Made by a program: the position numbers and the translations under genes
The notes under the pieces: generated by a model
The model's input: only the letters and a program-made list of their open reading frames with translations
Told to the model about the DNA's origin: nothing
Databases searched by the model: none
Assembly: GCA_964480945.1 (NCBI GenBank)
Contig: CAYZRX010000002.1
Coordinates: forward strand, 5,009 to 69,008
Source: an uncultured Ignavibacteriaceae bacterium
GTDB lineage: Bacteria; Bacteroidota; Ignavibacteria; UBA10030
Direction: 5' to 3'
DNA length: 64,000 nt
Part shown: positions 2,860 through 64,000 of the stretch, piece by piece
Layout: every line of letters begins with the position of its first letter
Numbering within the stretch: the first letter of the stretch is position 1

Positions 2860-3408
2860 CTAGAGAAGCTTCGACCTCAATATCCGGACGCACTCTTGAG
2901 GAGTCTCCGCATGCTGGATGAAGCGGGTGGGATCGTCGACTCCTTCCGACACCGACTCCTTCCCCAGGATTTCAACCAACCCCTTCCAAAAAGGCCCAAG
3001 CAGCACGACAGGTCTTTCCGGTATCAGCCTCTTGTTGATGAACTCCCAGACGTAAGCGAGCTCCAGCAGGGTTCCGGTCCCTCCTCTCAAGATAACGTAC
3101 CCTTGCGCCGAATCGACGAGCTTCGTTATCCTCTCCGCAAGCGATTTCGTCCGCACCTCGGTGTCGATCCACCTGTTCGCAGTGCGAGGAAAATCCTCAA
3201 CGGTGACGCCGATCGTTTCTCCGTTCACCTCTTTCGCGCCTCGCGCAGAAGCCTCCATAATGCCCCCGTATCCCCCGTTGCAAACGACGAATCCGACACG
3301 CGCGAGTTCTCGCCCAAGCTCCCAGGCAGTCAGATATTCTGCCTCCCCCTCCTGAGGCCTCGAGCTCCCGAAGACTGAGATGGTCTTGTTCATAACGGAT
3401 GGAGGCAA
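2860..3408 (-). CDS. LOG family protein (cytokinin riboside 5'-monophosphate phosphoribohydrolase-like, TIGR00730)
   Basis: GGYGGIMEA and RGGTGTLLEL (PGGxGTxxE-type) motifs. 182 aa. Confidence 0.75.
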   Translation of the reverse strand: MPPSVMNKTISVFGSSRPQEGEAEYLTAWELGRELARVGFVVCNGGYGGIMEASARGAKEVNGETIGVTVEDFPRTANRWIDTEVRTKSLAERITKLVDSAQGYVILRGGTGTLLELAYVWEFINKRLIPERPVVLLGPFWKGLVEILGKESVSEGVDDPTRFIQHAETPQECVRILRSKLL

Positions 3409-47168: not shown

Positions 47169-47328
47169 AGGAAAAATGAAAAAGTGAAAAGGAAAAAAGA
47201 AAAATCACGATTGATGGGTGGAGGAGTACTTGAGTCTTCACGTATGCCAGTGGTAAGTATGTGAATGGATGGAAAAGGAGCTGCGAGGAAGAGAAGAGAA
47301 CGAAGGGGAGACGGGGGTCCGGATCCTG

Positions 47329-62930: not shown

Positions 62931-63386
62931 ATGGTCGAAGCTTCAAAAAAGATCTTGACGGATACAGTCAAGGAATGGGCCAAATTCACTGCGGACAAGG
63001 ACAAGTTTACAGCCATTGCCCACGACGTTTCCGAGCTCGCCCGGAAGTGCGTCCAGGAAAGCATCGCTTTCCTCAAGACGCAGAACATCGAGGCGGAAGC
63101 CGATTCGCCGGAGTCGATGTCGATTCTGCATGTTCCTATCCATATCGATCCCGTCATCGAGGCGACCTTTCCGAATGTAAAGGCGAGCGTCATGATGAAA
63201 TGCGGTGGGGCGTCCCGGGCGATCGTCATAAATCCGAACTCGACAATTTCGGCCGGCGGCAACCCGTTCGCTTATGAGCTGCTGAAGAAGGGCATTCCGC
63301 CGGGGTTCGAAACGAACGCGGCAGACTTCGTTCGCGATGCGTTCCTGAACGTTGCTCGGACGGGAGGTAAGGAACAAGCATTATAG
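62931..63386 (+). CDS. hypothetical protein (151 aa)
   Basis: Internal Met of track ORF 62577..63386, preceded by AGGGGG. Balanced amino-acid composition, unlike the R-rich antisense ORF 62943..63377. No family recognised. Confidence 0.4.
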   Translation: MVEASKKILTDTVKEWAKFTADKDKFTAIAHDVSELARKCVQESIAFLKTQNIEAEADSPESMSILHVPIHIDPVIEATFPNVKASVMMKCGGASRAIVINPNSTISAGGNPFAYELLKKGIPPGFETNAADFVRDAFLNVARTGGKEQAL

Positions 63387-63425
63387 GAAATCGACGATTT
63401 TCTATTGTCGATTTTCGATTGAGAG
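63387..63425. repeat. left flanking repeat array of the four-helix-bundle cassette (3x TCGATTTT-type units)
   Basis: GAAATCGACGATTTTCTATTGTCGATTTTCGATTG. Inverted relative to 63841..63872. Confidence 0.45.
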
Positions 63426-63434
63426 AAAAAGTGG

Positions 63435-63798
63435 TTGATGAATGCTGATGAGTTAAAGAACCGCACGAAGGAATGTGCCGCACGGGTCGTGAAATTTGTT
63501 GAAAACCTCGAGCGAGGCAAGGCTACGACATCATTGGGAAGCAGCTCATACGGTCAGCCACCTCGGTTGCCGCCAACTACAGGGCAGCTTGTCGCTCACG
63601 TTCGCGCGCGGATTTCGCAAACAAGCTCGGCATCGTGGAGGGGGAAGCAGATGAAACTCCGTTCTGGTTCGAGACGTTGATTGCATGCAACAAAGTGGAG
63701 CAGGACGACGTTCATCCTTTGATGGATGAGGTGGAGCAGTTGTTGAAGATTTTTTCCGCTTCCCATATCACGGCGAAGAGAAACCGGTATCTTAAGTA
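63435..63798 (+). pseudogene. four-helix-bundle protein (23S rRNA intervening-sequence protein family, PF05635/TIGR02436-like), frameshifted
   Basis: N-terminal 32 aa in the frame of track ORF 63435 (...ARVVKFVENLERGKA). The remainder is in a second frame (IIGKQLIRSATSVAANYRAACRSRSRADFANKLGIVEGEADETPFWFETL...), which opens after a TGA. No start codon exists in the second frame. Confidence 0.55.
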
Positions 63799-63840
63799 AC
63801 GTGTTTTTTCGCGCGCCGCGCACCTCGAGAATCGTCAGCC

Positions 63841-63872
63841 GAAATCGGCAATTGAAAATCGAAAATCGAACC
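63841..63872. repeat. right flanking repeat array of the four-helix-bundle cassette (3x GAAAATCGA-type units)
   Basis: GAAATCGGCAATTGAAAATCGAAAATCGAACC. Reverse-complementary to the left array units. Confidence 0.45.
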
Positions 63873-63876
63873 TCCC

Positions 63877-64000
63877 GTGTCTTATACTCTGGTCTCTGAT
63901 TACCGTCCGAGCGGCGATCAGCCCGAGGCGATCAAGCAGCTCGTCGAGGGTCTGCTCCGCGGCGACCGCTACCAGACACTTCTGGGCGTTACCGGCAGCG
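63877..64000 (+). CDS. uvrB: excinuclease ABC subunit B, N-terminal fragment (continues beyond window)
   Basis: GTG start. [26 protein letters not shown]...[10 protein letters not shown] matches the UvrB N-terminus (PSGDQP...[12 protein letters not shown]). Confidence 0.85.

Follow-up and report, generated by a model that had tools for sequence, protein, structure and literature searches.

Near the end of the 64,000-nt stretch of uncultured Ignavibacteriaceae DNA analysed here (the window), the gap between a conserved hypothetical gene and uvrB is filled by a 486-nt cassette (measured between outer array ends) in which a small gene of the 23S rRNA IVS-protein family is bracketed by inverted arrays of heptamers. 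We consider it reasonably probable that this element is an IVS-type stem-loop cassette whose host is a protein-coding operon and not 23S rRNA. The copy in the window is itself a freshly broken small gene, and the interest lies in its layout, namely that of the ORF-bearing 23S IVSs placed inside an ordinary operon, which is also seen around homologues of the gene in seven or more phyla.

The locus and its four-helix-bundle gene

The cassette occupies the entire gap between two co-directional genes, both on the + strand. Upstream lies the conserved hypothetical gene, a 151-aa entry in the ORF list (62931..63386), whose TAG stop codon (63384-63386) abuts the left array. Four further contigs encode an identical protein at this position, and the gene is kept beside uvrB in related metagenome-assembled genomes; it had no match in Pfam or NCBIfam. 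The cassette lies directly 5' of uvrB, with its right arm stopping 5 nt short of the GTG start at 63877. This gene runs off the window (63877..64000, + strand), where its 5' end matches the NCBIfam UvrB equivalogs over residues 3-41, and a full-length UvrB of 671 aa is found at the corresponding position in the contigs L001, L084, and L085. Besides UvrB, the syntenic contigs list only M16 peptidases, a phosphoribosyltransferase, and hypothetical genes. We did not find rRNA or any other Rfam family in the 64-kb window at gathering scores, and at the cassette locus a search with E-values up to 10 returned only chance-level matches to snoRNA and IRES models. Within the cassette, scans for promoters of the sigma-70 type and of the Bacteroidota type (TAnnTTTG) gave nothing usable, and no terminator-like sites were found.

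The IVS-type gene (63438-63799) yields a 120-aa protein only after two reading frames are joined. The first frame starts at ATG 63438 and reads MNADELKNRTKECAARVVKFVENLERGKAT. The -1 frame, which is closed at its upstream end by TGA 63500-63502, reads DIIGKQLIRSATSVAANYRAAC... and runs to RNRYLK and the stop codon TAA 63797-63799. Aligned with L001, a contig that is ~99% identical, the window reads GCTAC-GACATC against GCTACTGACATC (at the lesion itself, GCTAC-GAC against GCTACTGAC), so one T has been lost between 63526 and 63527 on the + strand, namely the T of the ACT codon for Thr30. On the basis of translation, HMM matches, and the alignment of homologues, the N-terminal part of the gene covers codons 1-29 and the first two bases of codon 30 (63438..63526, + strand). 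Translation places the C-terminal part (DIIGKQLIRSATSVAANYRAACRSRSRADF...) in the -1 frame at 63527..63799 on the same strand, and tblastn recovered it with 98% identity over residues 28-120. The original prediction had proposed a single-base indel, which was correct; the peptide that it expected after repair, GKAYDIIGKQL, was off by one residue, as restoring the T from L001 gives GKATDIIGKQL (T, not Y).

The repaired 120-aa sequence matches PF05635 with 58.1 bits (profile positions 7-104 of 106; cut-off 33.8 bits) and TIGR02436 with 79 bits (cut-off 24 bits). Both matches are above the family cut-off, cover the full domain, and run unbroken across the frame joint, which agrees with the earlier assignment to the 23S rRNA IVS-protein family and with the claim that a family-typical protein arises only when the two frames are joined. 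The repaired protein and 10 homologues have 37 invariant columns in common. It also matches the solved family member 2RLD, with E = 2e-15 in a single-sequence search and 1.9e-22 in a profile search, and as the structure entry of 2RLD contains five chains, the window protein may by homology adopt the same four-helix-bundle pentamer fold. In the window the frame is interrupted and the copy is a pseudogene allele; the uncorrected frame gives an 80-aa product that stops at TGA 63678-63680, and an exact look-up found no record of this product, whereas one with the neighbouring 151-aa gene was successful.

Inverted heptamer arrays and their recurrence across the gene family

The inverted repeat arrays that had been proposed to bracket the gene were recovered both as inverted repeats and by Tandem Repeats Finder (TRF), with a unit of 7 nt and not the 8-9 nt first suggested. 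The left (5') arm (63387..63421, + strand) consists of about four RATTKNN heptamers (GATTTTC TATTGTC GATTTTC GATTG), preceded by a short inverted half-unit, GAAATCG. The right (3') arm (63841..63872, + strand) consists of about four heptamers (GAAATCG GCAATTG AAAATCG AAAATCG AACC) that reverse-complement those of the left arm. TRF reported a period of 7 on both sides, counting 3.7 CGATTTT copies on the left (63395-63420) and 4.1 AAATCGA copies on the right (63842-63870). The two arms form an inverted repeat of 26 nt with 81% complementarity (63395-63420 / 63843-63868), a second one of 20 nt with 90% complementarity, and a perfect inverted 13-mer (63408-63420 / 63857-63869). The best inverted-repeat score was 14, against a maximum of 11 among 3000 control placements of the same geometry in this window. 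An outer complementarity (63360-63368 / 63870-63878, perfect over 9 nt) is not conserved in orthologues and was discarded as chance.

In both MFE and centroid folds of 63375-63885, the terminal inverted repeats are predicted to close the element, as in an IVS, through a long stem of ~29 bp with small bulges (63391-63420 with 63830-63869, + strand). The mean pair probability of this stem is 0.65, the arm-arm RNA duplex has a predicted energy of -27.4 kcal/mol, and a population variant, A63394G, would change an A-U pair of the predicted stem to G-U. The fold of the whole element is no stabler than that of shuffled sequence (z = -1.4).

We compared 81-83 homologous cassettes from the Ignavibacteriota, Bacteroidota, Acidobacteriota, Chloroflexota, Verrucomicrobiota, Planctomycetota, and other phyla. 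Their flanking inverted-repeat score had a median of 16, compared with 8 in controls, and about 80% of the cassettes were armed (82% lay above the control 95th percentile); at the same loci, scores of at least 12 were reached by 62% of family ORFs and 3% of other ORFs. Arms scored 17.5 against their own partner and 8.6 against the arms of other loci (p = 1.5e-14). The repeat period was 7 or 8 in ~90% of flanks and did not differ between the two arms of a cassette in 60 of 61, with arms of 4-5 units (about 32 nt) and elements spanning a median of 462 nt. Neighbouring genes were largely co-oriented, upstream in 68 of 76 cases and downstream in 59 of 75. These comparisons demonstrate that the arms co-vary within each locus and that the architecture is family-wide, and judging from the sequences compared, the repeat-flanked layout is typical of the PF05635 gene family across many bacterial phyla. 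We found no published link between this gene family and flanking heptamer arrays in the searchable literature.

Unit sequences vary widely between cassettes, adjacent ones included, and left and right arm lengths correlated weakly and without significance (rho = 0.18, p = 0.16). The arms also have a polarity beyond what pairing alone explains: the 5' arm was G+T-rich in 46 of 61 pairs, and a GATTTTC array had its partner 3' of it in 32 cases and 5' of it in one. We considered the arrays as a diagnostic of the gene and dropped this use, as a family gene was present at only 4 of 120 loci chosen for their array (iterated model), and none of 105 GATTTTC arrays from metagenomes lay beside one (narrow model). 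Gene-less arrays are far commoner, and the role of an array needs no gene in cis. Around family genes, the arrays provide an annotation marker for cassette boundaries, and they explain why gene callers extend family ORFs into repeat-encoded tails.

A proposed transcript stem or possible protein-bound arrays

The kinship with 23S rRNA IVSs suggested in the original prediction is borne out by comparison with Coxiella burnetii, whose IVS is 428 nt long and combines an S23p ORF with tandem heptamers of GACAGAT and a terminal stem of 28 bp. RNase III excises this IVS, with cleavage shown in vitro and the sites determined by RACE, and its ORF is reported to have decayed while the RNA part was kept (PMC4990558). 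Like the ORF-bearing 23S IVSs of Coxiella and Leptospira, the window cassette has an ORF of the S23p / PF05635 family in sense orientation to the host transcript, terminal inverted repeats with a stem of about 28-30 bp, and tandem heptamers in the 5' arm. Its 486 nt, and the median of 462 nt for homologous cassettes, are similar to the size of the Coxiella IVS, and here too the ORF has decayed and the RNA part has been retained. Unlike the 23S IVSs, which are located in helix 9, 25 or 45, it lies between two protein-coding genes, the 151-aa gene and uvrB, so excision would not be needed to rescue a functional RNA. Its heptamer is RATTKNN and not the GACAGAT of Coxiella, and its cleavage by RNase III is proposed by analogy.

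We infer that the cassette would be co-transcribed with the upstream 151-aa gene and uvrB, and that the arrays would pair in the transcript in vivo to form a helix of ~30 bp. By analogy with the ORF-bearing 23S IVS elements, this helix would be a substrate of RNase III. Once cut, the transcript would lose the loop with the ORF, and the messages on either side would come apart. The uvrB message would keep a very short A/C-rich leader, and uvrB might be affected. On whether pairing takes place in RNA or in DNA, the arms gave no signal either way: wobble-type mismatches (38 vs 25, p = 0.13) did not favour sense RNA over DNA or the antisense strand, and sense and antisense arm duplexes were equal in stability. 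Transversions prevail among the arm mismatches (144 of 207), so the arms are not perfect helices.

An alternative that we regard as somewhat unlikely is that the arrays are recognized directly by a protein in a direction- and sequence-specific manner, on DNA or on single-stranded nucleic acid. The arrays would then act as iterons do, or as element ends with multiple sites, and might be bound by the pentameric four-helix-bundle protein itself, so that the helix and RNase III would be incidental. The arm polarity and the lack of a wobble signature on the sense strand are consistent with this. So are the 4-5 units per arm, their conserved RATT core, and their strict 7/8-nt register, but the unit sequences are too diverse between cassettes for a single binding specificity, and a 7-bp spacing would place successive sites on different faces of B-DNA. 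Pentamers have been crystallized in the family (the five chains of 2RLD and the five four-helix bundles of Xcc0516 from Xanthomonas campestris), an array of four units overlaps with the start annotated for Xcc0516 (Rehm et al. supplement), and the paired arrays of Geobacter have been proposed as global regulator sites (PMC2700814). The arms nevertheless co-vary to stay complementary, which pairing predicts and binding alone does not require.

Inverted hepta- or octanucleotide arrays have been reported as GGGAATC in Xanthomonas and Nostoc (Rehm 2015, PMC4692102) and as the paired ‘global regulator sites’ of Geobacter metallireducens (Aklujkar 2009, PMC2700814), and TAACTGA arrays are also known (MacGregor 2015, PMC4679880). 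The paired arrays of G. metallireducens were not found in G. sulfurreducens. The Xanthomonas arrays are transcribed (PMC4692102). The window cassette has the features by which the Xanthomonas, Nostoc, and Geobacter hairpins are recognized, namely units of 7-8 nt, a preference for 4-5 copies, and a convergent inverted pair between co-directional ORFs, near a stop on one side and a start on the other, and it shares with them a G-rich arm on the 5' side. The published arrays differ in being short-loop or solo and not tied to PF05635 genes, whereas the loop of the cassette carries such a gene. As the arms lack G-tracts, with no GGG run in either (units GATTTTC, TATTGTC, AATTGCC), the G-quadruplexes invoked for Xanthomonas do not provide an explanation here.

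In REPIN/RAYT systems, REP doublets form hairpins, the RAYT gene is itself flanked by inverted REPs, and RAYTs are HUH Y1 transposases whose cleavage chemistry is known. The arrays resemble these systems in that many short hairpin doublets coexist with few copies of a small gene between inverted repeats of the same kind. However, REPs share one sequence per genome, whereas here each hairpin may own its unit, and to our knowledge the four-helix-bundle protein has no catalytic motif. The DGR accessory protein Avd, which binds nucleic acid and reverse transcriptase, belongs to the same protein superfamily as the window protein. We know of no description of flanking heptamer arrays as a feature of DGR loci, and we did not find a reverse transcriptase, template repeat, or variable repeat nearby on the syntenic contigs. 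In the literature, Avd is a homologue of PF05635 proteins, and Xcc0516 is a ring of five four-helix bundles.

The layout of the cassette links S23p proteins, the inverted 7-nt arrays of Xanthomonas, Nostoc, Geobacter, and Beggiatoaceae, and the pentameric structure of the family, which have stood apart in the literature. It is intriguing to consider, as a speculation that we find doubtful, that the array hairpins dispersed over many bacterial genomes have their cognate partners in the S23p/IVP pentamers. If so, gene-bearing cassettes, including the ORF-bearing 23S IVSs, would be an ‘autonomous’ form, and the far more numerous ORF-less array hairpins of the same four groups would be ‘non-autonomous’, analogous to RAYT and REPIN. 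The 4-5 units per arm would be matched by five subunits per ring, and three separately reported features would be explained together.

Age of the cassette and status of the deletion

The order of 151-aa gene, cassette, and uvrB recurs in L002 (71% aa identity), L006, L007, and L013, and the relatives with a cassette in the same slot have 60-71% protein identity. Because this slot is occupied in relatives whose synonymous sites are saturated (dS among the syntenic cassette orthologues), the cassette is an old resident of the uvrB site and no recent insertion. The arm sequences differ between orthologous sites yet remain complementary. The four-helix-bundle protein is generally under purifying selection, with dN/dS = 0.13 for L008/L009, the sole pair close enough to measure.

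The original prediction had viewed the element as a mobile cassette with terminal inverted repeats, recently inserted in the uvrB promoter region and now decaying. We consider this improbable, and its ‘recent’ part is largely refuted by the filled site in relatives with saturated synonymous divergence. A small gene bracketed by inverted ends does fit such a view, and transposition of IVSs has already been suggested in the literature (PMC4990558). Moreover, related cassettes lie at many different intergenic sites in other genomes, some of them paired or in tandem, so the element type has moved over evolutionary time. In being a short segment with inverted ends, scattered at intergenic sites across genomes, the cassette is similar to MITEs and IS elements, but its arms are tandem short-unit arrays and it shows no target-site duplication, with no direct repeat of at least 4 nt abutting them. 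No transposase or recombinase was found in the element or its neighbours, in the window or on the syntenic contigs, and there is no near-identical copy within the 64-kb window, where tblastn finds the gene at this locus alone and TRF detects no other array of this kind. Unlike conserved transposase-binding ends, the heptamer arrays have diverged between orthologous sites. The placement in a promoter does not hold either, as the cassette fills an intra-operon gap and contains no promoter-like site. A period-7 tract at 47171, considered as a further array, is merely A-rich, and GAAAATCGA occurs 4 times in the window against 1.45 expected, with three of these inside the cassette.

The T deletion is a real allele and a recent inactivation of the ORF, and intact alleles persist in the same population. 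The same T is missing from the window, L084 (JGI 3300031255), and L085 (SRR9710561), while it is present and the gene is intact in the near-identical contigs L001, L086, and L087; with two further independent assemblies carrying the deletion and three contigs without it, we interpret it as a segregating null allele. The deletion is linked to an A at 63455, where the three intact contigs have G. Assemblies commonly err by single-base indels, and the near-identical intact copies could point to a gene that is whole in the organism, but a sequencing or assembly artefact is very improbable here: L084 and L085 are independent assemblies of different samples that share the deletion, the deletion is linked to the SNP at 63455, and the site, between CTAC and GACA, is no homopolymer. 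The original description of the copy as decaying was thus partly right, with a real deletion in three assemblies, whereas its suggestion of phase variation was not, as the lost base lies outside any repeat tract. A programmed -1 ribosomal frameshift or a reversible phase-variation switch is hardly credible, for although the frames overlap and a -1 shift within the ~25 nt of 63503-63527 would yield the full protein, this interval has neither an X XXY YYZ slippery heptamer nor a repeat tract, the protein is in a single frame in orthologues and allelic copies, with no shift conserved among the orthologues, and compared with all of these the window has simply lost a base. The arms are unchanged in the deletion-bearing genome, and the repaired product is the same protein as that of L086, with merely 3 synonymous differences between them.

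Layout of the cassette and its one-base lesion

The 490 bases that separate a gene for a 151-aa protein (stop codon TAG, 63384-63386) from uvrB (start codon GTG, 63877) are nearly all taken up by one element of 486 nt. Its left end is formed by roughly four tandem 7-nt units (63387-63421; TRF period 7, 3.7 copies of CGATTTT), and at its right end lies a second array that is reverse-complementary to the first (63841-63872; 4.1 copies of AAATCGA). A repeat finder identified the two as inverted repeats (26 nt at 81%, 20 nt at 90%, and 13 nt perfect), with a score of 14 against a maximum of 11 in 3000 random placements of the same geometry in this window. Neither a target-site duplication nor a transposase was found at the cassette, and further copies of the gene or arrays do not occur elsewhere in the 64-kb window. 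Outside the arrays, a perfect 9-nt complement (63360-63368 and 63870-63878; ACGGGAGGT and ACCTCCCGT) pairs the end of the upstream gene with the bases preceding and overlapping the uvrB GTG, but it is not kept at orthologous loci and is therefore probably due to chance. A short intergenic stretch at 47171-47205 holds an A-rich period-7 tract (GAAAAAT, 5 copies) that is unrelated to the cassette arrays.

The gene between the arrays is split over two frames. The frame from the ATG at 63438 encodes MNADELKNRTKECAARVVKFVENLERGKAT followed by unrelated sequence, and the -1 frame, which has an upstream TGA at 63500-63502, encodes DIIGKQLIRSATSVAANYRAACRSRSRADF...RNRYLK*. Joined, they give a 120-aa protein of the predicted family, scoring 58.1 bits against PF05635 (cut-off 33.8) and 79 bits against TIGR02436 (cut-off 24), with both matches unbroken across the joint. 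The protein also matches the solved family member 2RLD (E = 2e-15), an entry with five chains. A database search returned 1709 relatives, mostly 117-126 aa long, the best of which (95% identity) has exactly 120 aa and lies on a contig, L001, whose DNA is ~99% identical to the window. Aligning GCTAC-GACATC of the window with GCTACTGACATC of this intact homolog placed the suspected single-base indel between 63526 and 63527, where codon 30 (ACT) has lost a T. The original prediction is confirmed as an observation with two corrections: the repeat units are 7 nt long rather than 8-9 nt, and the restored peptide is GKATDIIGKQL, with Thr where Tyr had been proposed (GKAYDIIGKQL).

Four further contigs from other samples were retrieved through an identical upstream 151-aa protein. 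The deletion is common to the window, L084 (JGI 3300031255), and L085 (SRR9710561), and these two contigs carry A at 63455, as the window does; the T is present in L086, L087, and L001, all of which have G at 63455. Re-inserting the T makes the window protein identical to the L086 product, and the two genes differ at three synonymous sites. As the deletion recurs in other samples, does not fall in a homopolymer, and yields an L086-identical protein on repair, the cassette gene of the window is a young null allele that is polymorphic alongside intact alleles. Assembly error was rejected because L084 and L085, which come from other samples, have the same deletion. Programmed frameshifting and the phase variability that had been proposed were also rejected, as the ~25-nt stretch in which the frame could be regained by a -1 shift contains neither a slippery heptamer nor a repeat tract. 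There are hints that constraint on the gene may be relaxed in the window/L001 lineage: the in-frame allele of L001 (913-1275) has R49G, A50V, and C52Y within the family-invariant motif ANYRAACRSRS, and it differs from the window by five non-synonymous changes and one synonymous change.

Inverted arrays with and without the gene

The locus beside uvrB is itself ordinary, and what is worth pursuing is the architecture across the family and its tie to unexplained heptamer arrays. We compared the flanks of 81-83 homologous cassettes, one genome per species, from phyla including Ignavibacteriota, Bacteroidota, Acidobacteriota, Chloroflexota, Verrucomicrobiota, Planctomycetota, Nitrospirota, and Armatimonadota. 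The best flank-to-flank inverted repeat had a median score of 16, compared with 8 at control positions, and 82% of the cassettes lay above the control 95th percentile; scores of at least 12 were reached by 62% of family ORFs and 3% of other ORFs in the same loci. Upstream arms scored 17.5 against their own downstream arms and 8.6 against those of other loci (Wilcoxon p = 1.5e-14). The flanks have period 7 in ~60% and period 8 in ~30% (21% of controls for both periods combined), and both arms share one period in 60 of 61 cassettes. Arms have a median length of 32 nt, a mode of 4-5 units, and the consensus unit RATT[G/T]NN, while the whole element spans a median of 462 nt. Neighboring genes are mostly co-oriented with the cassette (upstream 68/76, downstream 59/75) across short gaps. 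More divergent TIGR02436-type ORFs likewise lie between such arrays (L016 1357-1878; L189 7078-7533).

Some loci contain two cassettes with unrelated arm units. In L011, an Ignavibacteriales metagenome-assembled genome, they lie either side of uvrB (491-847 and 3001-3357), and in four others they are in tandem, ~780 nt apart (L050 3001/3785, L052 2998/3770, L064 3001/3782, L082 3001/3819), the second copy encoding a protein only ~33% identical to the window query. About one third of the homologous ORFs run into the right-hand array (P0003; several gene calls in L013, L016, L023, L029, and others), and the resulting C-terminal tails, such as ...NRQSEIDNRQFH, are repeat-encoded gene-calling artefacts.

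A metagenome scan with GATTTTCGATTTTCGATT recovered 120 loci (657 kb in total), only four of which contain the family gene. An inverted partner array was present at 5-290 nt for 32 of 119 arrays, with two more at ~1.4 kb. The hairpins of these loci (L088-L207) have a strict polarity, with 32 partners 3' of the GATT-type array and one 5' of it. Loop sizes of inverted pairs across all loci are bimodal, either 0-100 nt or 350-450 nt with the gene inside. The gene-selected loci hold 81 additional 7/8-nt arrays away from the gene, often arranged as hairpins whose units are quite different. Because gene-bearing array loci are few and gene-less hairpins many, the gene-bearing cassette is the rarer, ORF-containing version of an array hairpin that is far more common. 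One locus, L094, has a composite hairpin (486-823) of several hepta-/octamer arrays (GATTTTC, GACTTTTT, GCACTTTC, and others) mirrored across a ~280-nt loop.

Age of the cassette at the uvrB site

The cassette had been read as a possible recent insertion into the uvrB promoter, but the order of 151-aa gene, cassette, and uvrB recurs in L002 (71% protein identity), L006, L007, and L013, metagenome-assembled genomes labelled Ignavibacteriae or Bacteroidota, and synonymous sites are saturated among these orthologues. A scan of the cassette interior found no promoter-like or terminator-like sites, and the nearest sigma-70-like site lies upstream of the 151-aa gene. The arm units differ between orthologous sites (GATTTTC in the window, GATTGAC and GATGTTC in L002, GATTTAT in L006, GATTGTC in L007), and the diverged arms are still mutually complementary inside each locus. 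These comparisons indicate that the cassette was not recently inserted upstream of uvrB. For L008/L009, the sole close pair available, dN/dS is 0.13, so the cassette protein is normally under purifying selection. The 151-aa gene (62931-63386) is conserved beside uvrB in metagenome-assembled genomes of Ignavibacteriota and Bacteroidota, although it is without a Pfam or NCBIfam match; in L027, L033, and L074 a cassette is upstream of this gene rather than downstream.

Possible mode of action and known systems

In the predicted RNA fold of 63375-63885, a stem of ~29 bp joins positions 63391-63420 to 63830-63869 in the MFE and centroid structures alike, and the duplex of the two arms alone is predicted at -27.4 kcal/mol. 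The sole population variant within an arm, A63394G, changes an A-U pair to G-U. The best-supported model is built by analogy at each of its four steps: the cassette would be co-transcribed with the flanking genes, its arms would form a long helix in the transcript, RNase III would cut this helix as in rRNA IVSs, and the ORF-bearing loop would be freed, with uvrB keeping a short A/C-rich leader. Recognition of the arrays by a protein, rather than action purely at the RNA level, is kept alive by several features: an arm polarity that does not follow from pairing (the 5' arm is the G+T-rich one in 46 of 61 pairs, p = 9e-5), the absence of a sense-strand wobble bias among arm mismatches (38 vs 25, p = 0.13), most of which are transversions, the equal stability of sense and antisense duplexes, the narrow arm size of 4-5 units, and the pentameric family protein.

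Returning to the RNase III model, the Coxiella burnetii IVS is built from the same parts as the window cassette: it is 428 nt long, has an S23p ORF inside and tandem GACAGAT heptamers upstream of it, and forms a stem that is cut by RNase III; its ORF decays while the RNA part is kept (PMC4990558). The parts are alike and the host transcript is different, and the element is best filed as an IVS-type variant in a different host transcript, bearing a young null allele. The original interpretation is partly supported, being right on the family, indel, inverted arrays, and IVS kinship and wrong on recent promoter insertion and phase variability.

Arrays with units of 7-8 nt are on record from three other settings. 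GGGAATC arrays of Xanthomonas and Nostoc prefer four units, form 70-75 inverted pairs, and lie, transcribed, between co-directional ORFs (PMC4692102); in Geobacter metallireducens the sites come in pairs and consist of four to five hepta- or octanucleotides in tandem (PMC2700814); and TAACTGA arrays occur in Beggiatoaceae, cyanobacteria, and Bacteroidetes (PMC4679880). These reports give neither a function nor the S23p family (PMC4692102, PMC2700814, PMC4679880), and our literature searches found no publication connecting that family with heptamer arrays. One of the arrays given in the Xanthomonas supplement, with four units, runs across the annotated start of XCC0516 (PMC4692102). The crystal structure of XCC0516, which belongs to the S23p family, shows five four-helix bundles arranged in a ring. 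In three Bacteroidota cassettes (L041, L054, and L081), the arms consist of 8-nt units containing TAACTGA (TAACTGAA / TAACTGAG), the heptamer of the unexplained intergenic repeats in Beggiatoaceae, cyanobacteria, and Bacteroidetes.
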